Shown in pieces: positions 3,311-43,235 of a DNA stretch of 64,000 nt. Each line of letters starts with the position of its first letter. Position 1 is the first letter of the stretch. The position numbers were made by a program, and so were the translations under genes. Source of the DNA: a virus; IMG/VR virus record IMGVR_UViG_3300033121_000578, positions 7,845-71,844 of that record; one strand, written 5' to 3'. The notes beneath the pieces are model-generated. The model did no database searches. It had not been told where the DNA came from and worked only from the letters and a program-made list of their open reading frames with translations.

Positions 3311-3405
3311 CTCACCAAACTCACCTGTTTAGGGCATATTGTTCGGGAAACTAGTCCTACTCACTAACCCTCCATCATCACTGCTTTATAGTAATGAACG
3401 AGGGA

Positions 3406-3663
3406 TTAGCCACCCAGCTTTGCCATCAGCTCGGCAAGAGGGTTTTTGGCCTGTGAAATCAGGTCACCCAGCATAAAGCAGGATAACATCAGGCGTGTAG
3501 GGTCATCTTTGTACTTGTTGTACAGATGTTCCAGAGCCTTGGATTTGTTACCTGTTTCTGCAGCTTCAAAGACTTCAGGCTTGATTTCTTTGACGGCATC
3601 ATCGGGGAGAGACAGGCTCGCTGTGAGCGTCTTTTCTTCGTGTTTAAACTGTACTTGTTCCAT
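3406..3663 (-). CDS. hypothetical protein (85 aa)
   Basis: ORF. Confidence 0.5.
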   Translation of the reverse strand: MEQVQFKHEEKTLTASLSLPDDAVKEIKPEVFEAAETGNKSKALEHLYNKYKDDPTRLMLSCFMLGDLISQAKNPLAELMAKLGG

Positions 3664-7622: not shown

Positions 7623-7922
7623 CTAACGCAATGAAAGCCTGAGTTTATACTCGGATAACTTATCAATAATCTCTTTTATGCTCTTTTCACCACAGTTCCT
7701 GATTTTGGATAAATCCTCAATAGTATAGGTTGAGGTAAAATGCTCCAACGTATCATCAAGTACTCTTCCATCTAATTGGTAAAGAATATTGATGATTCTT
7801 GCGTTATATCCAAATACATCACGCATAGTTGGCTCAATATCAGGTTTTTGTAACTCTTCAGCTATCTCCTTAAGACTGTCTGCAATACCATGCAAAATTC
7901 TTGAGATTTTACTTTTGTTCAT
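7623..7922 (-). CDS. RNA polymerase alpha-subunit C-terminal-domain-like HhH DNA-binding protein
   Basis: C-terminal LSKIRNCGEKSIKEIIDKLSEYKLRLS closely matches the alpha-CTD motif [22 protein letters not shown] (recalled from memory). Confidence 0.55.
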   Translation of the reverse strand: MNKSKISRILHGIADSLKEIAEELQKPDIEPTMRDVFGYNARIINILYQLDGRVLDDTLEHFTSTYTIEDLSKIRNCGEKSIKEIIDKLSEYKLRLSLR

Positions 7923-36249: not shown

Positions 36250-37311
36250 ATGGCTTGTCCTGAAGTAAATCCTTGCGACCCTTGTAATGAATATGATAAC
36301 TGTGGTTGTCTTAATCCTACTACATTTGGGTGCGTAACAACAAATAAAGTAAGAGAGTGCCTTGGTACAGAATCAGGAGAGGATGGTGAAAGTGTCCTTG
36401 ATAAGATAGAGGAAAAGGTATGTAATATTGGAAAAGTTATCATTGATGATAATGATACTTGTCCTGAAGGTCTTTTTGATAAACTAGAAGCTGGTCTTAA
36501 TATATCTTTAACACAATCAGGTACTGGATGTGATAAAAAGATAAGAATTGATGCTACTGAAGGTGGTGTTCCAGTAGACGTAAATGTAAAAATATCTACA
36601 GATGACACAACAAGTGGATATCTATATGATAAAATACAAACAGGAACATATCTCACAAAATCAATAGTATCACCTGCGGGTAATGAAAAGCTAAGATTAG
36701 ATGTAGTACCATCTACTTTGATTTCATCTGATTTAGGAAATCAACTTGGTTTAGGTGGAGATGGAAAATTAGTTACCCTATATACTGCCCCTGATGGTAG
36801 TGAGACGCAGTTAATTGCTGGTACAGGTACCACTGTTAGTGGTTCTGGTACATTAGTTGACCCATATATAGTATCAACTAATGCATCTATTCAGGTAGCT
36901 CGTCCATGTTTTGATGGTATTTGGAGAAATATTACACTTGTAGCAACAGGTAATCCTAGTGTTACATACATGTCTGGTGCTCCTCAATATCGTTATCGTT
37001 TTGACGGAACTATTGAGTTCAGAGGCTCTGCTACATATCAAGTAGCTTTTGGTAATAATGTATCTGCATCCAGAAAGTTCACAATTACAGCTGGTAATAT
37101 ACCAACTACATGCTTAACTCTTGGTGAACAAGCTGGTACAATTGATTTAAAATCAATAACTTATATAGAAAGTGCAGGTCAGATGTACAACTATATCATA
37201 AGAAAAGCTACTCAAAATATAGTTCTGGAATTCCAGTCTTCATTTACTGCAGCTACAAATAAAACAATAGTTGTAAACTTTGAAGGAGCTGTGAGTCATC
37301 CCCTAATATAA
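36250..37311 (+). CDS. putative tail fibre protein with Cys-rich N-terminus (353 aa)
   Basis: MACPEVNPCDPCNEYDNCGC then Gly/Thr-rich repeats. Confidence 0.55.
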   Translation: MACPEVNPCDPCNEYDNCGCLNPTTFGCVTTNKVRECLGTESGEDGESVLDKIEEKVCNIGKVIIDDNDTCPEGLFDKLEAGLNISLTQSGTGCDKKIRIDATEGGVPVDVNVKISTDDTTSGYLYDKIQTGTYLTKSIVSPAGNEKLRLDVVPSTLISSDLGNQLGLGGDGKLVTLYTAPDGSETQLIAGTGTTVSGSGTLVDPYIVSTNASIQVARPCFDGIWRNITLVATGNPSVTYMSGAPQYRYRFDGTIEFRGSATYQVAFGNNVSASRKFTITAGNIPTTCLTLGEQAGTIDLKSITYIESAGQMYNYIIRKATQNIVLEFQSSFTAATNKTIVVNFEGAVSHPLI

Positions 37312-37361
37312 TTTGGACTTCAAATATAAAACCTCGGTTGTTGGTTCTCCGAGAAAGTTTG

Positions 37362-37394
37362 GGAGGGTATGTCTATACTCTCCTTTTATTTTTA
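37362..37394 (+). terminator. rho-independent terminator after the fibre cluster
   Basis: GGAGGGTAT(gtct)ATACTCTCC then TTTTATTTTT. Confidence 0.6.
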
Positions 37395-37413
37395 ACTCTT
37401 AAAACTTAATTAT

Positions 37414-37461
37414 ATGAAAAAGCTTTACGGTGGTGGTTGTGGATGTGGAGGTAAAAAATAA
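37414..37461 (+). CDS. tiny Gly/Cys peptide ORF (15 aa, MKKLYGGGCGCGGKK)
   Basis: ATG...TAA between a terminator and a promoter; speculative. Confidence 0.2.
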   Translation: MKKLYGGGCGCGGKK

Positions 37462-37482
37462 TTCCACATTTCTAAAGAAAAA

Positions 37483-37514
37483 TTTGGTTAGTAAAATAAT
37501 TTGTCATATATTTG
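37483..37514 (+). promoter_or_regulatory. Bacteroidetes-type promoter (-33 TTTG 37483-86, -7 TATATTTG 37507-14)
   Basis: consensus spacing of ~20; the ATG of the 29-aa ORF is 5 nt downstream. Confidence 0.55.
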
Positions 37515-37518
37515 CTAT

Positions 37519-37608
37519 ATGAAATTACAACGTACACATACACAATGGTTTACCTGCCCCCAGTGCCCATGCACAGGAGAGGGGTGTTGTGTATGTATAC
37601 TAAACTAA
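37519..37608 (+). CDS. 29-aa Cys-rich peptide (MKLQRTHTQWFTCPQCPCTGEGCCVCILN)
   Basis: its own promoter directly upstream and its own terminator 37634-37664 downstream; 7 Cys in 29 residues. Confidence 0.35.
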   Translation: MKLQRTHTQWFTCPQCPCTGEGCCVCILN

Positions 37609-37633
37609 AACAGTCAGAGGTATAAATATACAA

Positions 37634-37664
37634 CCCCATCCCAAAAAGGTGGGGTTTTCTTTTT
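37634..37664 (+). terminator. rho-independent terminator
   Basis: CCCCATCC(caaaaa)GGTGGGG then TTTTCTTTTT. Confidence 0.55.
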
Positions 37665-37702
37665 CGAGTGGTAGTTCAGTTGGTAGAATGCGTGCTTTAG
37701 AA
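37665..37702 (+). pseudogene. tRNA 5' half (acceptor CGAGTGG, D-arm GTTC-AGTTGGTA-GAAT, 5' anticodon stem CGTGC, loop TTTAGAA)
   Basis: canonical tRNA 5' structure that stops inside the anticodon loop; the matching 3' half is at 38299-38323. Confidence 0.55.
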
Positions 37703-37721
37703 AAGTAGTTGAGAAAATAAA

Positions 37722-37752
37722 TTTGGAAATCCAAAACTTTTTTCTTAACTTT
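37722..37752 (+). promoter_or_regulatory. Bacteroidetes-type promoter for the HNH gene (-33 TTTG, -7 TAACTTTG)
   Basis: aaataaaTTTGgaaatccaaaacttttttcTAacTTTGtgatATG. Confidence 0.5.
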
Positions 37753-37757
37753 GTGAT

Positions 37758-38240
37758 ATGAAAACCTTAATACTATGTAGCCATTGCGGAAATTCTTTTG
37801 AAGCAGAAAACAAATATATTAATTATAGTAAGAAAAAAGGATGGAATTTATATTGCTCGGAGAATTGTAAATTTGCAGGAAAGAAAAAATCTGAGGTATG
37901 TAATTGTCATACCTGTGGAAAATCTGTGATTAAAACACCATCCTCTAAAAAGAGGTCAATAAGTGGAAAGGTTTTCTGCAGTAGAAAATGTTCTACAATA
38001 TTTACTAATTCTGAATATAAAACAGGAGAAAGGCATCCTAATTATAATAATGGATTATCTTCTTATAGACAAAGAAAATTAAGAAGTGGCAATAACAAGT
38101 GCGAAGATTGTGGAAACTCTGATATAAGAGTATTAGAGGTTCACCATAGAGATGAAAATAGAAAGAATAACTCTCTTGAAAATTTAGCAATTCTTTGTGC
38201 TAATTGTCACAGAATAAGACATTTCGAGAATGTGGTGTAA
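37758..38240 (+). CDS. HNH homing endonuclease with N-terminal CxxC zinc-finger repeats
   Basis: C-terminal EVHHRDENRKNNSLENLAILCANCHRIRH is an HNH motif; multiple CxxC pairs. Confidence 0.75.
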   Translation: MKTLILCSHCGNSFEAENKYINYSKKKGWNLYCSENCKFAGKKKSEVCNCHTCGKSVIKTPSSKKRSISGKVFCSRKCSTIFTNSEYKTGERHPNYNNGLSSYRQRKLRSGNNKCEDCGNSDIRVLEVHHRDENRKNNSLENLAILCANCHRIRHFENVV

Positions 38241-38294
38241 TGGTAGCACTCTAAGTTTGGGACTTAGGAGAGCCGTTCGAATCGGACATTTTCG
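38226..38294 (+). tRNA. tRNA-Pro(TGG)-like with defective T-arm (possible pseudogene)
   Basis: acceptor GAGAATG/CATTTTC (7 bp, one GU), D-arm GTGT-AATGGTA-GCAC, anticodon arm CTAAG-TTTGGGA-CTTAG; the T-arm is only CCG-TTCGAAT-CGG; overlaps the HNH ORF 3' end. Confidence 0.4.
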
Positions 38295-38298
38295 ACTG

Positions 38299-38323
38299 AG
38301 TGGTTCGAGTCCAGTCCACTCGA
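38299..38323 (+). pseudogene. tRNA 3' part (T-arm AGTGG-TTCGAGT-CCAGT plus acceptor CCACTCG, discriminator A) matching the 5' half at 37665
   Basis: acceptor strand is the exact reverse complement of CGAGTGG at 37665-37671; the T-arm resembles bacterial tRNA-Asn. Confidence 0.55.
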
Positions 38324-38328
38324 CACAA

Positions 38329-38402
38329 GCCTGAGTAGCTTTAACTGGTAGAGCAGCTGCCTTGTAAGCAGACGGTTGCAGGTTCGAGTCCTGTCTTAGG
38401 CT
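38329..38402 (+). tRNA. tRNA-Thr(TGT)
   Basis: hand-folded cloverleaf: acceptor GCCTGAG/CTTAGGC, anticodon loop CTTGTAA, T-arm GCAGG-TTCGAGT-CCTGT. Confidence 0.8.
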
Positions 38403-38407
38403 CATAT

Positions 38408-38434
38408 GTCACCTTGGCTGAGTGGTCAAAGGCA
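38408..38434 (+). pseudogene. tRNA 5' fragment of class-II (Ser-like) type
   Basis: GTCACCT-TG-GCTGAGTGGTCAAAGGC resembles a tRNA-Ser acceptor plus D-arm, then breaks off into the HNH promoter. Confidence 0.4.
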
Positions 38435-38441
38435 AAATAAA

Positions 38442-38473
38442 TTTGGCAATTTGAACCTTTTGTTGTATATTTG
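38442..38473 (+). promoter_or_regulatory. Bacteroidetes-type promoter for the second HNH gene (-33 TTTG, -7 TATATTTG)
   Basis: aaataaaTTTGgcaatttgaaccttttgttgTAtaTTTGtat. Confidence 0.55.
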
Positions 38474-38490
38474 TATTATAATACAAAATT

Positions 38491-39084
38491 ATGAACAAGG
38501 GTTTAAAAAGTAAAGTTATTGAGTTATATTCACAAGGAAAATCATATAATCAAATTTCAGAGGAATTAGGTTGTAGTAAAGGAACAATATCTTTTCATGT
38601 TTCTTCTATGGCAGAAGAAAAGATACACAAGGTTCGAAGAGAAAAGAAAAAACAAATAGAAACCATAATTAATGAAGTTAAAGAGTCTAAAGGTTTAACT
38701 TTAAAAGACTTTGAAGACATCTACAGAATGACTCTTCCTTTAAAAGACTTCTTAAAACTGAGAAATGAGTTATTTGAGAAAAAATATATTACCAAGGAAC
38801 TAAGTGTTGCAGATTATCATAAAAATAGAAGAAGACAAATAAAAAAAGAATTGGTTGACATTAAAGGTGGAAAATGTCAAGTGTGTGGATATAATAAATG
38901 TCTTAGGTCATTAGAGTTTCATCATCTAGACCCTTTACAAAAAGATTTTACAATATCTGGAAATCTCAAAAGAATTAAGAGAGAAAAAGTAATAAAAGAG
39001 CTAGAAAAATGCATATTAGTATGTTCTAACTGTCATGGAGAAATACATGATGGATTAATAAGAGTAGATACCAGAGAGGATTAA
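38491..39084 (+). CDS. HNH homing endonuclease with N-terminal HTH
   Basis: CQVCGYNKCLRSLEFHHLDPLQKDFTISGNLKRI...CSNCHGEIH is an HNH motif; N-terminal YSQGKSYNQISEELGCSKGTISFHV is HTH-like. Confidence 0.75.
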   Translation: MNKGLKSKVIELYSQGKSYNQISEELGCSKGTISFHVSSMAEEKIHKVRREKKKQIETIINEVKESKGLTLKDFEDIYRMTLPLKDFLKLRNELFEKKYITKELSVADYHKNRRRQIKKELVDIKGGKCQVCGYNKCLRSLEFHHLDPLQKDFTISGNLKRIKREKVIKELEKCILVCSNCHGEIHDGLIRVDTRED

Positions 39085-39137
39085 TGGCTCAGACTGCAAA
39101 TCTGTTGATTTCGGGAGTTCGAATCTCCCTCTACTCT
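39062..39137 (+). tRNA. tRNA-Cys(GCA)
   Basis: acceptor GAGTAGA/TCTACTC perfect, anticodon loop CTGCAAA, T-arm GGGAG-TTCGAAT-CTCCC; atypical D-arm; the 5' 23 nt overlap the HNH ORF end. Confidence 0.6.
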
Positions 39138-39143
39138 CATAAT

Positions 39144-39216
39144 GGTAAGTTAGCAAAGATGGTCTATGCGGAGGACTGAAAATCCTTAGATAGTGGTTCG
39201 ATACCACTACTTACCA
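39144..39216 (+). tRNA. tRNA-Phe(GAA)
   Basis: acceptor GGTAAGT/ACTTACC, anticodon loop CTGAAAA, T-arm AGTGG-TTCGATA-CCACT. Confidence 0.8.
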
Positions 39217-39222
39217 CAACAT

Positions 39223-39295
39223 ACGGGTGCTCAAGGCTGGCGTGATAAACCGTCTCCAAAACGGTGACTTGGGGAATCGTTCTCTCCCACCCGTG
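39223..39295 (+). tRNA. tRNA-Trp(CCA)
   Basis: acceptor ACGGGTG/CACCCGT, anticodon arm ACCGT-CTCCAAA-ACGGT; weak D-stem and unusual T-loop ATCGTTC. Confidence 0.6.
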
Positions 39296-39300
39296 CATAT

Positions 39301-39372
39301 TTCCAAGTAGGATAATGGTATTCCGTCAGATTTTGGCTCTGAAAATTCTAGGTTCGACCCCTAGCTTGGAAA
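39301..39372 (+). tRNA. tRNA-Gln(TTG)
   Basis: acceptor TTCCAAG/CTTGGAA, anticodon arm TCAGA-TTTTGGC-TCTGA, T-arm CTAGG-TTCGACC-CCTAG. Confidence 0.8.
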
Positions 39373-39374
39373 CT

Positions 39375-39449
39375 GGTGTCTATAGCTTAACTGGATAGAG
39401 CCCCTGATTGTGGCTCAGGGTTGTGCCGATTCGAATTCGGTTAGACACC
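39375..39449 (+). tRNA. tRNA-His(GTG) with G-1:C73
   Basis: 8-bp acceptor GGTGTCTA/TAGACACC including the His-specific G-1; anticodon loop TTGTGGC. Confidence 0.85.
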
Positions 39450-39453
39450 CACT

Positions 39454-39527
39454 GCTCCCATAGCTTAACTGGATAAAGCACATGGCTACGGACCATGAGA
39501 CTGAGGGCTCGAATCCTTCTGGGAGTA
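39454..39527 (+). tRNA. tRNA-Arg(ACG)
   Basis: D-arm GCTT-AACTGGATA-AAGC, anticodon arm CATGG-CTACGGA-CCATG, T-arm GAGGG-CTCGAAT-CCTTC. Confidence 0.8.
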
Positions 39528-39562
39528 CATTAACAATTCATTAGGATATATATGTCGTATAT

Positions 39563-39835
39563 TTGTGTATGCAATTCAATCCAAACTCAAACGAATATCT
39601 TAGTAAATTTGAACCTAAGACATGGGATGAAATAAAAGAACAACCATCTCATGATAATATATGGGTGAAAGACCCAGAAAAGCTTCTTAAGCTTGAGAAT
39701 ATGACGGGAATATGGTCTCAACTTCAAGAGCCGTCTAGGCAGATAACCCTAATGACAGGTAGGGGTGGAATGGAGCTCTTTCAGAAAGCAATGAAAGAAA
39801 TGTTTGAAAAAGAGCAAGAAAAATTTGGAAATTAG
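39563..39835 (+). CDS. hypothetical protein (90 aa)
   Basis: ORF between tRNA clusters. Confidence 0.45.
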   Translation: MCMQFNPNSNEYLSKFEPKTWDEIKEQPSHDNIWVKDPEKLLKLENMTGIWSQLQEPSRQITLMTGRGGMELFQKAMKEMFEKEQEKFGN

Positions 39836-39855
39836 AAAATTAGTTCGTATATTTG
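39823..39855 (+). promoter_or_regulatory. Bacteroidetes-type promoter (-33 TTTG, -7 TATATTTG) with no ORF downstream
   Basis: aaaaaTTTGgaaattagaaaattagttcgTAtaTTTGtattcg. Confidence 0.5.
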
Positions 39856-39861
39856 TATTCG

Positions 39862-40036
39862 TAAAAACATTAAACAGCAGATGTACTTATTTTATATGAT
39901 AGCGGATAATGGAGATGTGAGAGGCATTGAGAAAAATGGCTCCGGGTTTCCTATGTCTGTTGTCTAAGTAGAAACAAATACCAACTGATTAGAAGCCTGG
40001 AGCCTAGCCACAAGCTACTCCGGGTTTTTTCGTTTT
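39862..40036 (+). ncRNA. candidate ~170-nt noncoding transcript (promoter to terminator, no significant ORF)
   Basis: bounded by the promoter at 39823-39855 and the hairpin CCTGGAG(N16)CTCCGGG plus TTTTTT at 39996-40036; contains direct repeat CTCCGGGTTT at 39940 and 40017. Confidence 0.35.
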
Positions 40037-40037
40037 A

Positions 40038-40111
40038 GCCCTTGTAGCTTGAAGGCCAAGCAATAGACTTTTAATCTATGGTTCTCAGTTCGATTCTGAG
40101 CAGGGGTACCA
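40038..40111 (+). tRNA. tRNA-Lys(TTT), CCA encoded
   Basis: anticodon arm ATAGA-CTTTTAA-TCTAT, T-arm CTCAG-TTCGATT-CTGAG, acceptor GCCCTTG/CAGGGGT then ACCA. Confidence 0.8.
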
Positions 40112-40115
40112 AAAT

Positions 40116-40145
40116 GCTTTTGTAGCTCATGTGGAAGCAGCTATC
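40116..40145 (+). pseudogene. tRNA 5'-half-like fragment (acceptor plus D-arm GCTC-ATGTGGAA-GC)
   Basis: GCTTTTG-TA-GCTCATGTGGAAGCAGC; no T-arm; overlaps the start of tRNA-Lys(CTT). Confidence 0.3.
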
Positions 40146-40220
40146 CCAGTCTTAGCAAAATTTGGTGTTGCTCCTGACTCTTAATCAGGTAAAAAGTGAG
40201 TTCGATTCTCACAGGCTGGA
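40146..40220 (+). tRNA. tRNA-Lys(CTT)
   Basis: D-arm GCAA-AATTTGGTG-TTGC, anticodon arm CCTGA-CTCTTAA-TCAGG, T-arm GTGAG-TTCGATT-CTCAC. Confidence 0.8.
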
Positions 40221-40235
40221 CATAATAAATTATAT

Positions 40236-40308
40236 TGAGGGATGCAGCAGTGGTAGCTGGCAGGTCTCATAAGCCTCGCAGTCGTGGGTTCGAGTCCCAC
40301 TCCCTCAA
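40236..40308 (+). tRNA. tRNA-Met(CAT), elongator or Ile2-type
   Basis: acceptor TGAGGGA/TCCCTCA, D-arm CAGC-AGTGGTA-GCTG, anticodon loop CTCATAA, T-arm GTGGG-TTCGAGT-CCCAC. Confidence 0.7.
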
Positions 40309-40313
40309 CAAAA

Positions 40314-40345
40314 TTTGGTCATTATTTATAATCTCCATACATTTG
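40314..40345 (+). promoter_or_regulatory. Bacteroidetes-type promoter (-33 TTTG, -7 TACATTTG) giving a near-leaderless start at 40349
   Basis: aaaaTTTGgtcattatttataatctccaTAcaTTTGtatATG. Confidence 0.5.
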
Positions 40346-40348
40346 TAT

Positions 40349-40813
40349 ATGGAAAGATATTTTCGGACAGAGGATGGTAAGATGGTAAATGTCATAGAAC
40401 ACACTTTGGAACAAATAGAAAAGTGGCCAAATCTTAAAATCTATATAGCAACTGATAGTCAGGATTCAGGAAAAGAATCAAAGTATGCTACAGTAGTTGT
40501 ATATAGATATGGAACAAGAGGGGCACACTATATTTACTTCAAGGATGCAGTTCCAAGAAGAGATATGTTTACTCGTCTTTATGATGAAGCTGTTCGTACA
40601 ATAGAGACTGCTCAAATGATTGATAGTGAGATACCTGTATCATTTGCAGCTCTTGAGTTTGACTATAATACTTTACCTAAGTGGGCAAGTAATAAGCTTG
40701 TATCATCAATAAGAGGATGGGTAAAGGGATTAAATTATAACTTTGTATTTAAGAATACAGGAAATGACATCATGATAGCTGCAAAGGCAGCAGACCATGT
40801 ATGTAGAAGGTAA
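40349..40813 (+). CDS. hypothetical protein, possibly RNase H-like fold nuclease (154 aa)
   Basis: start at ATG 40349 (the listed ORF's N-terminus is translated tRNA); KIYIATDSQDS and IMIAAKAADH are loosely RuvC/RNase H-like. Confidence 0.45.
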   Translation: MERYFRTEDGKMVNVIEHTLEQIEKWPNLKIYIATDSQDSGKESKYATVVVYRYGTRGAHYIYFKDAVPRRDMFTRLYDEAVRTIETAQMIDSEIPVSFAALEFDYNTLPKWASNKLVSSIRGWVKGLNYNFVFKNTGNDIMIAAKAADHVCRR

Positions 40814-40885
40814 GCAGTAGTAGTGCTAATGGTAACACGCCAGCCTTCCACGCTGGATTTGAGAGTTCGAGTCTCTTCTACTGCT
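40814..40885 (+). tRNA. tRNA-Gly(TCC)
   Basis: acceptor GCAGTAG/CTACTGC, anticodon arm CCAGC-CTTCCAC-GCTGG, T-arm GAGAG-TTCGAGT-CTCTT. Confidence 0.8.
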
Positions 40886-41003
40886 CATAAGCCCGAAGTA
40901 CAAGGGAACGAAGATAGAGTAACTCCTCTGGAAACATGAAACTCTCTAAATCGTAGGTTAGCACAGTTTGAAGGTCTGGGGATATTGTTTAAAACCTTCA
41001 ATT

Positions 41004-41076
41004 GCAGCAATAGCTCAATTGGTAGAGCGTGACCTTGCCAAGGTTAAGGTTGCAGGTTCGAGACCTGTTTGCTGCT
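41004..41076 (+). tRNA. tRNA-Gly(GCC)
   Basis: acceptor GCAGCAA/TTGCTGC, D-arm GCTC-AATTGGTA-GAGC, anticodon loop TTGCCAA. Confidence 0.8.
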
Positions 41077-41081
41077 CATAT

Positions 41082-41155
41082 GCTCCTGTGGACAAGTTGG
41101 TTAAGTCACTTGCCTTTCACGCAAGTCATCGTGGGTTCGAGCCCCATCAGGAGTA
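41082..41155 (+). tRNA. tRNA-Glu(TTC)
   Basis: anticodon arm CTTGC-CTTTCAC-GCAAG, T-arm GTGGG-TTCGAGC-CCCAT. Confidence 0.8.
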
Positions 41156-41160
41156 CATAA

Positions 41161-41235
41161 GGAACCATGGTCGAATTGGTTACGATTCCACCCTGTCACG
41201 GTGCGAGATTGCGGGTTCGAGTCCCGTTGGTTCCG
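41161..41235 (+). tRNA. tRNA-Asp(GTC)
   Basis: acceptor GGAACCA/TGGTTCC, anticodon loop CTGTCAC, T-arm GCGGG-TTCGAGT-CCCGT. Confidence 0.75.
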
Positions 41236-41290
41236 CTAGGAGAGCACGTTTTGTACGTCTGAGGCTGAAAGAAGCAATCCCTCTCCATCC

Positions 41291-41362
41291 ACTCTTATAG
41301 CTCAATGGTAGAGCACATGCCTTATACGCATTAGGTTTCCAGTTCGAATCTGGATGAGAGTA
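41291..41362 (+). tRNA. tRNA-Ile(TAT)
   Basis: D-arm GCTC-AATGGTA-GAGC, anticodon loop CTTATAC (U33, TAT, A37), T-arm TCCAG-TTCGAAT-CTGGA, acceptor ACTCTTA/TGAGAGT. Confidence 0.7.
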
Positions 41363-41424
41363 CAGGAGATAACCTCTGGTATACAAGTGGCCACCCTGTG
41401 TCTATGGGTCAAGTTATCTCAATT

Positions 41425-41497
41425 GCTCATATAACTCAATTGGTAGAGTACTACTCCGATACGGTAGAAGTTATAGGTTCGAGACCTATTATGAGCA
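41425..41497 (+). tRNA. tRNA-Ile(GAT)
   Basis: acceptor GCTCATA/TATGAGC perfect, D-arm ACTC-AATTGGTA-GAGT, anticodon loop CCGATAC (C33 atypical), T-arm ATAGG-TTCGAGA-CCTAT. Confidence 0.6.
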
Positions 41498-41498
41498 C

Positions 41499-41969
41499 AT
41501 GAAACCATTTAAAGAAGCATTAGAAGAGGCAACAATCTATGAAGATTTGATTGCAAACTGGTTAGAATCCAGAGGAAATAAGATACTTTTTCGTTCAAAA
41601 GAGAAGGAGTTTGACATACAATATCTAACAGTAGATGGTAAAACAAAAACTATTGAAGTAAAATATGACAAGCTATCTTCTGAAACAGGTAATGTAGCAA
41701 TTGAATTTAAAAGAAAAAACAAGAAATCTGAGGAATTTGAAGCAACTGGAATATCAGTTACAACTGCAAATTATTGGGTACACATAGTAGATAAATTTGA
41801 TGTCTATATTATAGATAGAGAGATACTACTAATGCAGATTCAAAGTAATGGATACCCACAGGTATTTGGTGGAGATGATATGAGAACTAAAATGCATCTT
41901 ATAGATAAACAGGAATTTGCAGAAATGTGCAAAGTATATAAGAATGCTTTATACGGGGGATTAGTATAG
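41499..41969 (+). CDS. hypothetical protein (156 aa)
   Basis: ORF starting 2 nt after tRNA-Ile; its 3' end overlaps tRNA-Ala. Confidence 0.5.
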   Translation: MKPFKEALEEATIYEDLIANWLESRGNKILFRSKEKEFDIQYLTVDGKTKTIEVKYDKLSSETGNVAIEFKRKNKKSEEFEATGISVTTANYWVHIVDKFDVYIIDREILLMQIQSNGYPQVFGGDDMRTKMHLIDKQEFAEMCKVYKNALYGGLV

Positions 41970-42027
41970 ATGGCAAAAATACCTGATTTGCATTCAGGAG
42001 TCACCAGTTCGATGCTGGTATCCTCCA
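41955..42027 (+). tRNA. tRNA-Ala(TGC) with G3:U70
   Basis: acceptor GGGGGAT/ATCCTCC carrying the Ala identity G3:U70 wobble; anticodon arm CCTGA-TTTGCAT-TCAGG, T-arm ACCAG-TTCGATG-CTGGT. Confidence 0.8.
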
Positions 42028-42083
42028 CATTTATTTGGTAATATGGAAATTTTGTAGTATATTGTACTATAAATAATACTACC

Positions 42084-42302
42084 ATGTTACAAGAAAAAGA
42101 TTTATATTGGCTTGCTGGTCTATTAGAAGGTGAAGGTTATTTCCAACCAAAGAGGAAATCAAGTCCTGTAATTGCACTTGAGATTACTGATGAAGATATA
42201 ATACAAAGAGTTTGCAAACTTATAGGTACAACTTATTGTAAACCAAAGATTAGGAAACAAACTCATAGACAATCCTTTAAAACTACTTTAAATTGTATTT
42301 AA
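42084..42302 (+). pseudogene. truncated LAGLIDADG homing endonuclease (72-aa N-terminal fragment)
   Basis: LYWLAGLLEGEGYF motif, but the ORF is too short for a functional single-motif enzyme. Confidence 0.5.
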
Positions 42303-42320
42303 TCCTTAATTAATAGTAAT

Positions 42321-43235
42321 ATGACACAAGAACAAATAGAAAAGGAATTTAAAAAAATTAAAAGATTAATTTGTTGCTCTGCTGCTACACCACTTAGATT
42401 TGGAGTATTAGGAGAAGATGATACTGGAATTGAAGCTAGAGCTTTTACTACTAACGATGATTTTCAGCTTTTACTTGATGGCGTAGATGGTACAAAAAAT
42501 ATTTTTTTAAGAAATAGTTATGGTGTAGGTAGTCAATTTTCTGAAGTATCGTTACAATCATCTTCATTTATAGCAAGAGGGCAAGAATCAGTAACAGGAA
42601 CAGGTCAGTTTAGTTTATCAAATTTGACTATGAGTATGAGTTCTGATAATCAAGCTTTTTATCAAGCTGAAAATGGTTATTTAATGTTGCAATTAGGTTG
42701 GCAAGATAAGCTTTTTCAAATTGGCGATGTTGATGCAAACTATAATGGAACAAAAATAACAATTGATGATGCTAATTCAATAGTAGCTGTAACTAATATT
42801 CCTTTAGAAATTCCATCATCAGATGCAGATAGGCTTTTATTTCAAAGTGATGGTGACACACAAATAAAAGCTACTACAATTTCTGATTTATTAGGATATA
42901 AAGTATATACAGCATTATTAACACAAAGAGGAACTGCTGCACCAACAGCAGTGATATTAAAAAATACACTAGGTGGTATTCCTACATGGACAAGAGAAGG
43001 ACTTGGAAAATATAGAGCAACACTAGCAAATACATTTAATGTAAGTAAAACAGCAGTGCTAATAACAGCATCAACAGAGAATTTACAGACTGATGAAGTG
43101 GCCATAGGAGTTGCGAGATTTGACAATGGTACAAATGACGACTATATAGAAATAGTCACAGGAGAACCGTCATTCTGGGGACAAGTGGATAATGCATTAT
43201 CAAAAACGACAATAGAAATAAGAGTATATAATTAA
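42321..43235 (+). CDS. hypothetical protein, possibly fibre/receptor-binding-like (304 aa)
   Basis: long ORF; terminator GGAGC(cttgt)GCTCC plus TTTTATTTTT at 43316-43342. Confidence 0.55.
   Translation: MTQEQIEKEFKKIKRLICCSAATPLRFGVLGEDDTGIEARAFTTNDDFQLLLDGVDGTKNIFLRNSYGVGSQFSEVSLQSSSFIARGQESVTGTGQFSLSNLTMSMSSDNQAFYQAENGYLMLQLGWQDKLFQIGDVDANYNGTKITIDDANSIVAVTNIPLEIPSSDADRLLFQSDGDTQIKATTISDLLGYKVYTALLTQRGTAAPTAVILKNTLGGIPTWTREGLGKYRATLANTFNVSKTAVLITASTENLQTDEVAIGVARFDNGTNDDYIEIVTGEPSFWGQVDNALSKTTIEIRVYN

Follow-up and report, generated by a model that had tools for sequence, protein, structure and literature searches.

What is the gene of a homing endonuclease doing between two ends that seem to belong to a single tRNA gene? 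The question is raised by a locus in the IMG/VR virus record IMGVR_UViG_3300033121_000578, of which positions 7,845 to 71,844 were analysed. This whole stretch of 64,000 nt is referred to here as the window, all positions are window coordinates, and L001 to L117 designate the related loci and contigs compared with it. The locus is the left start of an array of 17 tRNA genes (38225-42028). An earlier note, made from the letters alone, had described it as a tRNA gene split around an HNH endonuclease gene, and the sequence features listed there, including acceptor strands that pair at seven of seven positions, a promoter and a 160-aa HNH open reading frame (ORF), are all present where it had placed them. 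The explanation that we consider probable is that the ~600 bp at 37699-38298 are a mobile cassette, with its own promoter, an HNH homing endonuclease (HNH-1) and a complete tRNA-Pro(UGG), sitting inside a former resident tRNA-Pro(UGG) gene. What is left of the resident gene are two non-functional remnants, corresponding to tRNA positions 1-34 and ~49-73. The order from 5' to 3' is terminator, 5' remnant, ~20 nt, promoter, ORF, cassette tRNA-Pro, 2 nt, 3' remnant and tRNA-Thr, as follows:

37632..37664, plus strand: intrinsic terminator, a hairpin (37632-37656) with a T-run, closing the upstream small-peptide gene
37665..37698, plus strand: 5' remnant of the resident tRNA-Pro(UGG), positions 1-34 (truncated Rfam tRNA match; aligns to L003 and L004)
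37701..37757, plus strand: left end of the cassette with a Bacteroidetes-type promoter (near-identical block in L006)
37758..38240, plus strand: HNH-1, a free-standing HNH (His-Me finger) endonuclease of 160 aa (Pfam, PHROG, homologues)
38225..38296, plus strand: cassette-borne replacement tRNA-Pro(UGG) (ARAGORN and Rfam)
38299..38323, plus strand: 3' remnant of the resident tRNA-Pro (T-arm, acceptor 3' strand, discriminator A)
38329..38403, plus strand: tRNA-Thr(UGU), the conserved right flank and second gene of the array

The 5' remnant begins immediately 3' of the terminator, which is the left flank of the tRNA array and keeps its position in L003, L004, L006, L008, L011 and L117. It consists of the acceptor strand CGAGTGG (37665-37671), TA, a D-arm GTTC/AGTTGGTA/GAAT (37674-37689), a G, and the 5' strand of the anticodon stem CGTGC (37691-37695), followed by TTTAGAA, of which the TTT of the loop was counted in the remnant. 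By comparison with L006 and L008, this loop is TTTGGGAG minus 3 nt, and the AG at 37699-37700 may be the old tRNA positions 38-39. The 3' remnant contains AGTGG-TTCGAGT-CCAGT (38299-38315, a T-arm with four of five stem pairs), the acceptor strand CCACTCG (38316-38322), an A and then CA. The two acceptor strands are complementary 7/7 at a distance of ~650 nt. Both strands of the 64-kb window taken together contain CCACTCG only four times, and the remnant pair accounts for two of these. The 3' strand of the anticodon stem, GCACG, is absent from the downstream remnant, as the earlier note had also found. When the 5' remnant was examined alone, in a stretch cut at 37700, Rfam returned a 3'-truncated tRNA match (model 1-35, 16.5 bits, E=0.37), weak by itself and consistent with this identification. 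The 3' remnant alone gave no tRNA match in the truncated mode of Rfam, being too short.

The decisive support for the remnants is their alignment to an intact tRNA at the equivalent position in relatives. L003 and L004, whose upstream structural protein is 65-66% identical to that of the window, lack HNH-1 and carry a single intact tRNA-Pro(UGG) directly past the equivalent terminator, followed by 'ACAtaa' and tRNA-Thr. The order of the array (Pro-Thr-Cys-Phe-Trp-Gln-His-Arg) is common to all. The 5' remnant is placed exactly at the start of the L003 gene and is ~77% identical to its positions 1-35 (D-arm TAGTTCAGTtGGTAGAA for the window and TAGTTCAGTcaGGTAGAA for L003). The 3' remnant is placed exactly at the end of the intact gene in L003 and L004, trailing A-CA and the spacer to tRNA-Thr included. 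When the remnants are joined, those of the window, L008 and L011 differ from the intact genes, in a multiple alignment, by one gap of ~12 nt at positions 39-52. This alignment, together with the position, assigns both halves to one former gene, so that 37665-37698 and 38299-38323 are, as judged by comparison with the relatives, the two ends of a tRNA-Pro(UGG) gene. That both halves align to one intact tRNA bears out the earlier proposal of a single gene disrupted by the HNH insertion. The same note had likened the T-arm to tRNA-Asn, and this identity has to be abandoned. The real tRNA-Asn(GUU) of L001, located elsewhere in its array, is unrelated in sequence to the halves, and the T-arm TTCGAGTCCAGT was also found in the tRNA-Pro of L007.

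The sequence between the remnants contains everything that a self-sufficient gene unit would need. The promoter is an instance (TTTG-N20-TAACTTTG, 37722-37753, with TTTG at 37722-37725 and TAACTTTG at 37746-37753) of the motif TTTG-N18-21-TAnnTTTG, which is enriched in the window (11 sites vs ~2 expected), and the ATG of HNH-1 lies 5 nt past it. From this enrichment the source appears to be an uncultured Bacteroidetes-type phage, with a bacterial host of that type. Neither a megablast search with 7 kb against 50,697 phage records nor a tblastn search of the phage collection with a flank protein gave any match, and tblastn with HNH-1 retrieved only two distant ones; this is therefore a phage without a cultured relative. 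HNH-1 itself matches Pfam PF01844 (28.9 bits vs a cut-off of 21.4) and PHROG 1271 'HNH endonuclease' (E=7e-18), and has three CxxC...CxxxC zinc-ribbon-like units N-terminal to the catalytic motif. Comparison with solved structures gave no significant match. The residues C115, C118, H129, H130, N138, N142, C147, C150, H151 and H155 are invariant across 15 homologues; the ORF is intact and preserves every family-invariant residue. Its stop codon is located in the D-loop of the downstream tRNA-Pro, which the ORF overlaps by 16 nt. Three HNH ORFs were examined in this group of phages, and each of them ends inside the D-loop of the next tRNA.

The tRNA at the end of the cassette was called tRNA-Pro(UGG) by both ARAGORN and Rfam (RF00005, 44.2 bits vs a gathering score of 29). 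It has nine consecutive pairs from the termini, a 1-nt linker and a T stem of 3 bp (9/3 vs the canonical 7/5). To our knowledge, this 9/3 geometry is otherwise found in 'allo-tRNAs' with long variable arms and not in tRNA-Pro. The arrangement is kept, with covariation, in five lineages (the window, L006 4468-4538, L026 1995-2065, L079 1971-2041 and L020 1354-1424), and in L080 the split resident tRNA is itself of the 9/3 type. Among 12 HNH-linked tRNA-Pro genes, ten of the 14 predicted pairs show double compensatory changes, and the D, anticodon and T stems are kept; between the window and L006, for example, G31:C39 becomes C31:G39 and G4·U69 becomes G4:C69. The covariation argues that this is a genuine, conserved tRNA under selection, a structural variant of the cloverleaf. 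It carries C1:G72, A73, G35 and G36, which are known identity elements for the prolyl-tRNA synthetase of E. coli and bacteria, and it would accordingly be predicted to be charged with proline. As the sole tRNA-Pro in the window, it would now supply the tRNA-Pro function. The earlier note had described it as an aberrant tRNA-Pro-like gene overlapping the end of the ORF. The overlap is there, and the aberration is in the helices; the presence of this tRNA is not incidental, for it is the cassette's replacement copy of the destroyed gene.

How the cassette came to be here is suggested by its comparison with L006. HNH-1 is 72% identical between the two, the promoter block is near-identical and the cassette tRNAs differ at 5 of 71 nt (93% identical), while the flank proteins are only 45% and 54% identical. 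On these same proteins L006 is the outgroup, as the values for L003 and L004 are 65-66%; the closer relatives L003 and L004 do not have the cassette (their site is intact), and it is present in the window, L006, L008, L011 and L117. Since the cassette is far more conserved than its flanks, sequence comparison indicates that it spreads horizontally between diverged phages. The similarity between the window and L006 starts at the anticodon loop of the 5' remnant, and upstream of this point the 5' remnants are only about half identical. The D-stem of the window (GTTC/GAAT) matches the intact allele of L003 and that of L006 (GGCT/AGCC) the intact allele of L004. Each genome thus surrounds a shared, mobile middle with tRNA-Pro ends of its own, and this is why the acceptors differ among lineages yet always pair.

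A way to find out whether this is an isolated accident is to look at other members of the family. HNH-1 homologues were used to collect 80 IMG/VR loci and several metagenome contigs. A tRNA was located within 1.5 kb in 64 of the 80 loci, and in 15 the ORF stop falls between -25 and +10 nt of a tRNA start, most often of tRNA-Pro. At least seven lineages have 5' and 3' remnants of tRNA-Pro, with complementary acceptors, around the HNH gene and a second complete tRNA-Pro. The acceptor remnants are:

window: CGAGTGG/CCACTCG
L008 (L008/9): CTAGATG/CATCTAG
L011 (L011/12): GGCGATG/CATTGCC
L013: CGGATAG/CTATCCG
L038: CGGGATG/TATCCCG
L080: CGGGAAT/ATTTCCG
L117: TGGGTAG/CTACCCA

The left remnants end at tRNA positions 34-43 and the right ones start at 49-54. 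What is lost (6-15 nt) is always the 3' strand of the anticodon stem, the variable loop or the 5' strand of the T-stem; in L117 the variable loop alone is missing. The order within the insert is promoter-HNH-tRNA in the group of the window, and tRNA-promoter-HNH or promoter-tRNA-HNH in L013, L038 and L080. In L062 a member of the HNH-1 family splits a different gene, a tRNA-Val(UAC), in the variable-loop/T-stem region (1175-1222 and 2160-2186), and there the cargo is a complete tRNA-Val(UAC), not called by ARAGORN. An automated and loose search for acceptor-complementary orphan halves gave 39 matches vs 19-35 in shifted-register controls, many of them AT-rich chance pairs, and only matches with clear tRNA features were used.

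Some broken tRNA genes of other shapes were seen in the same loci. In L015 (~1262-1330) and L020 (~1268-1335), upstream of tRNA-Pro and HNH, the order is permuted, a tRNA 3' remnant being followed within 2-7 nt by a 5' fragment with exactly complementary acceptor strands (CTAACTG/CAGTTAG and TTATTAG/CTAATAA, respectively); these could be two broken tandem copies. Downstream of the tRNA-Pro case of L013, another tRNA is split by ~700 bp (2690-2720 and 3403-3433, CACCCCA/TGGGGTG). In L115 (~1895-2040) a tRNA-like gene with matching acceptors, D-arm and T-arm has its anticodon arm replaced by 35-100 nt; its position next to a TROVE (Ro60) gene makes a YrlA-type Y RNA, with a tRNA-like module, its probable identity. 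Similar genes were found in L037 (2656-2785 and 2798-2925), L035 (253-430) and L055 (816-982).

Could the two halves of the window nonetheless be a functional interrupted tRNA, by means of a group I or other intron or of trans-splicing? Their 7/7 acceptors, perfect D-arm and almost intact T-arm would fit, and in bacteria there are known cases of tRNA genes whose anticodon loop is interrupted by a group I intron with an endonuclease ORF, an arrangement that the earlier note had kept in view while preferring disruption. We regard this as highly improbable. No match to RF00028 or to any other intron model, group II included, was obtained with Rfam at E<=10 over 37600-38420, nor at E<=1 over 37000-43000, and besides the ORF and the tRNA the insert amounts to 59 nt (the promoter) plus 2 nt. 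The supposed intron would contain a complete tRNA-Pro. Moreover, the 3' strand of the anticodon stem and the variable loop are gone in the window, L006, L008, L011 and L038, the 3' remnant is wholly absent in L006 and the 5' strand of the T-stem in L008. With positions ~35-48 missing and no intron ribozyme, the locus is therefore a scar and not a spliceable gene, and the preference for disruption was justified. Even more remote, to the point of being negligible, is a chance resemblance or an assembly chimera. The mere 16.5 bits of the isolated 5' remnant might raise that suspicion; the positional homology to intact genes and the recurrence in independent lineages speak against it, and the arrangement is identical in four independent contigs from different samples, so that the split layout is not an assembly artefact.

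The fact that acceptors differ among seven lineages yet are all complementary, with D-stems still paired in the 5' remnants, would also be expected from one ancient, vertically inherited insertion whose remnants were selected for an RNA-level role of the long-range acceptor pairing. A minihelix directing RNase P or RNase Z processing, or one protecting the endonuclease transcript, would be examples of such a role. An insertion of this kind, and with it the RNA-level role, seems quite unlikely, since the cassette is incongruent with the backbone (72% for HNH-1 vs 45% for the flank), the closer relatives L003 and L004 are intact and the remnant alleles match different intact alleles in other phages. 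In addition, the 3' remnant has been lost in L006, L026 and L018, which retain the 5' remnant only, the T-arm is variably truncated, and the remnant of the window has lost three loop nucleotides and has a T-stem mismatch. A further reading would make the HNH gene a passenger without any targeting of tRNA-Pro, the split having arisen by illegitimate recombination, or duplication and deletion, between tandem tRNA-Pro copies of an array prone to recombination. Tandem tRNA-Pro pairs do exist (L022), there are many other fragments in tRNA arrays as well as the permuted ones of L015 and L020, and the nuclease activity of HNH-1 is a predicted one. This is unlikely, though somewhat less so than an ancient insertion, because in at least seven lineages the broken gene has one tRNA identity, the break falls in one 15-nt region and the HNH gene inside is in every case of the HNH-1 family; where a member of this family splits tRNA-Val, it is a tRNA-Val that is carried, and with Cys and Ala the pattern is seen again in another HNH family. 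The boundary of similarity between the window and L006, furthermore, coincides with the tRNA break.

Several observations weigh against a mobile cassette that landed in the resident tRNA-Pro gene. An intact allele with the exact CGAGTGG...CCACTCG acceptor was not found in IMG/VR or in the JGI metagenome collection: a 31-mer retrieved from IMG/VR the window's own lineage only, and a 24-mer search of JGI and ENA metagenomes two further contigs of that lineage and an unrelated marine tRNA-Asp. The ancestral gene (CGAGTGG...TTTGGGAGCACG...ACTGGTTCGAGTCCAGTCCACTCGA) was therefore reconstructed from positional homologues with 68-77% identity. The remnants of every lineage retain perfect D-stems and acceptor complementarity; we attribute this to the recent capture of each genome's own allele, and it could also reflect selection on the remnants. 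At the junctions there is no clear homology or target-site duplication, except for a 4-nt TGAG repeat flanking the insert of L013. The 9/3 geometry is unusual for a replacement copy, whose role in translation is a prediction, and the cutting of tRNA-Pro genes by HNH-1 is deduced from the pattern of insertions.

If the cassette is indeed mobile, its movement may be pictured as follows. During co-infection, HNH-1 would cut or nick cassette-free tRNA-Pro genes within positions 35-53, and repair would then copy the cassette from the donor. The anticodon loop TTTGGGA and the T-loop GGTTCGANTCC, beside the break, might act as short homology in this repair, which would explain that each genome retains its own matching acceptor strands. 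The region of the break (35-53) is deleted in the remnants and divergent in the cassette tRNA. By virtue of this difference and of its 9/3 geometry, the cassette tRNA-Pro could be immune to cutting and at the same time compensate for the destroyed gene, and an element with such a cargo would tolerate landing inside its target without an intron or an intein. Expression of the nuclease would probably be kept low by RNase P, whose processing at the tRNA 5' end would sever the HNH mRNA ahead of the stop codon and remove it, as the ORF stop lies inside the downstream tRNA.

A second insertion of the same kind is located right after tRNA-Thr, with the following features:

38408..38433, plus strand: 5' fragment of the resident tRNA-Cys, positions 1-26 (matches the 5' part of the L003 tRNA-Cys, GGCTGAGTGGTCAAAGGC)
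38442..38473, plus strand: promoter of the second cassette (promoter motif)
38491..39084, plus strand: HNH-2, a helix-turn-helix (HTH) plus HNH endonuclease of 197 aa (family matches)
39062..39138, plus strand: cassette-borne replacement tRNA-Cys(GCA) (tRNA call)

The stop codon of HNH-2 is in the D-loop of this tRNA-Cys, which the ORF overlaps by 23 nt. The replacement tRNA-Cys (39062-39138) is complete and unrelated to the 5' fragment at 38408, its acceptor being mismatched to it. Relatives of HNH-2 elsewhere abut tRNAs and follow 5' fragments of that same tRNA, e.g., tRNA-Ala in L109, and in L004 and L117 yet another HNH gene occupies the Thr/Cys position and also ends inside tRNA-Cys. Thus HNH-2, to judge from its layout and relatives, did to tRNA-Cys what the HNH-1 cassette did to tRNA-Pro. 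The near-identical contigs L001, L094 and L095 have lost 469 bp (38408-38876), and with them the fragment, the promoter and two thirds of the ORF, so the HNH-2 gene is already decaying. The earlier note had spoken of a snapshot of endonuclease-driven remodelling. The remodelling stands; a one-off event it is not, as it recurs in many phage lineages and again at tRNA-Cys, 100 bp downstream.

The closest known parallel is SegB of phage T4, a free-standing GIY-YIG homing endonuclease in the T4 tRNA cluster, encoded directly upstream of a tRNA (PMC2330249). SegB recognises a tRNA gene sequence (a T-loop motif), cuts the tRNA genes of phages without SegB and is co-inherited with the neighbouring tRNA genes, which replace those of the recipient; maturation of the adjacent tRNA-Arg has been proposed to sever its mRNA at the stop codon and so to limit expression, and the same limit has been proposed for the F-Tfl genes of phage T5 (PMC2330249). 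SegB remodels phage tRNA arrays and drives tRNA gene amplification (PMC13096335). HNH-1 is likewise inside a phage tRNA array, abuts a tRNA and is co-inherited with it, and would be a functional analogue of SegB, not a homologue, because one is HNH and the other GIY-YIG. The difference is that SegB homing is a clean block replacement through long flanking homology that leaves no split target, whereas the cassette of the window lies inside the target gene, leaves both of its ends as remnants and carries an isoacceptor of the destroyed gene. The T5 F-Tfl endonucleases, reportedly HNH-type and free-standing inside the phage tRNA cluster (a 2004 study), resemble HNH-1 in type, in location and in the proposed limit on expression. 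We know of no split target tRNA with a replacement copy described for them, and HNH-1 had no matches to T5-like phages in the phage collection.

Group I introns in tRNA anticodon loops share with this locus a mobile nuclease gene that interrupts a tRNA near the anticodon loop; however, the intron splices and both exons are complete, while the locus of the window has no ribozyme and a partly deleted target gene, whose function is restored by a spare copy. In the Aeromonas phage Aeh1, according to what Friedrich et al. are said to have found in 2007, the insertion of mobE splits nrdA into pieces that are functional as two polypeptides. There, too, a free-standing HNH gene was inserted inside its target, left in two pieces; in the window, by contrast, the pieces are dead, a replacement gene is carried and the target is an RNA gene. 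Prophages and islands with integrases also land in tRNA genes and bring sequence that preserves tRNA function, but through a tyrosine or serine recombinase and an att duplication that regenerates the gene, and not by supplying a whole divergent tRNA gene. Between the remnants there is no integrase, only the HNH ORF and the tRNA, and no att-like repeat of the tRNA 3' end. The split, permuted and intron-containing tRNAs of archaea have complete halves that a splicing endonuclease joins at a bulge-helix-bulge, and the insertion of mobile elements has been proposed as the cause of the disruption (PMC3218864, PMC3293823). They are alike in the genomic separation of the halves and in this proposed origin, and differ in that the phage remnants, 6-15 nt short and incomplete in all the lineages examined, cannot yield a full tRNA. 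The landing site of these cassettes recalls intron and intein homing, and the repair of the damage that they cause recalls tRNA-targeting islands; they use neither splicing nor an integrase, and are strictly coupled to a replacement tRNA of matching identity.

The footprint itself shows which tRNA was hit, the rough site (35-53), the cargo, which is a structurally divergent tRNA of matching identity, and transfer between phages whose structural proteins are ~45% identical. As a record of endonuclease-driven tRNA gene turnover it is real, general and conceptually close to SegB-type homing, and apparently undescribed. A full-text literature search, with partial coverage of subscription journals, did not find a tRNA gene split by an endonuclease together with a replacement-tRNA cassette, and an earlier description is possible. 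The cassettes account for orphan tRNA halves, which annotation pipelines overlook or might take for split or intron-containing tRNAs. They also lead to predictions, namely the target sites of an uncharacterised HNH family, an immune tRNA variant and the control of expression through tRNA processing. More tentatively, and with somewhat less than even confidence, we propose that they may form a distinct and widespread mobile class, 'carry-your-own-copy' cassettes, in which an HNH gene, permanently linked to a nuclease-immune copy of the tRNA gene that it cuts, lands inside this target and not next to it, the universally conserved anticodon loop and T-loop serving as portable short homology arms to invade any allele of that tRNA in unrelated phages. 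If true, this would be a third route, besides introns and inteins, to occupy a conserved target without killing its function, and one of the main forces behind the turnover of isoacceptors, the tRNA fragments and the mosaic structure of viral tRNA arrays. Such arrays in phages have come to be regarded as modules of counter-defence and codon adaptation, and a 9/3 tRNA-Pro may also escape host defences that target tRNAs.

A number of minor features complete the description of the array and its surroundings. Just past tRNA-Ala, behind a promoter-like site, a 72-aa ORF (42084-42302; LAGLIDADG_3, E=1.5e-5) resembles the truncated gene of a third homing endonuclease, with which the array would end. 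L003 (11160-11600) and L004 (11159-11599) have, between the structural and small-peptide genes, a 146-aa endonuclease-like ORF with motifs that, judged by eye, resemble NUMOD4 and HNH_3; the window has none there. Two small ORFs lie within the array (40346-40813 and 41499-41969), one of them RNase H-like (PF04308, E=1.7e-11) and the other coding for 156 aa without any family match. Between Lys-CUU and Met, the window lacks three tRNAs (Val, Arg-UCU and Asn) that are present in L001. At 39223-39295, where L003 and L004 have tRNA-Trp, there is a tRNA-Trp(CCA)-like gene missed by both ARAGORN and Rfam. Its acceptor pairs 7/7 and its anticodon arm and T stem are intact, with a T loop ATCGTTC and a non-canonical D arm, making it either a decaying gene or a structurally deviant tRNA. 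The spacers at 39840-40037, 40886-41003, 41237-41290 and 41364-41424 either show internal complementarity (e.g., ggagag...ctctcc and gagataac...gttatctc) or contain a promoter with a terminator-like end after it, and could be small RNAs or further tRNA debris.

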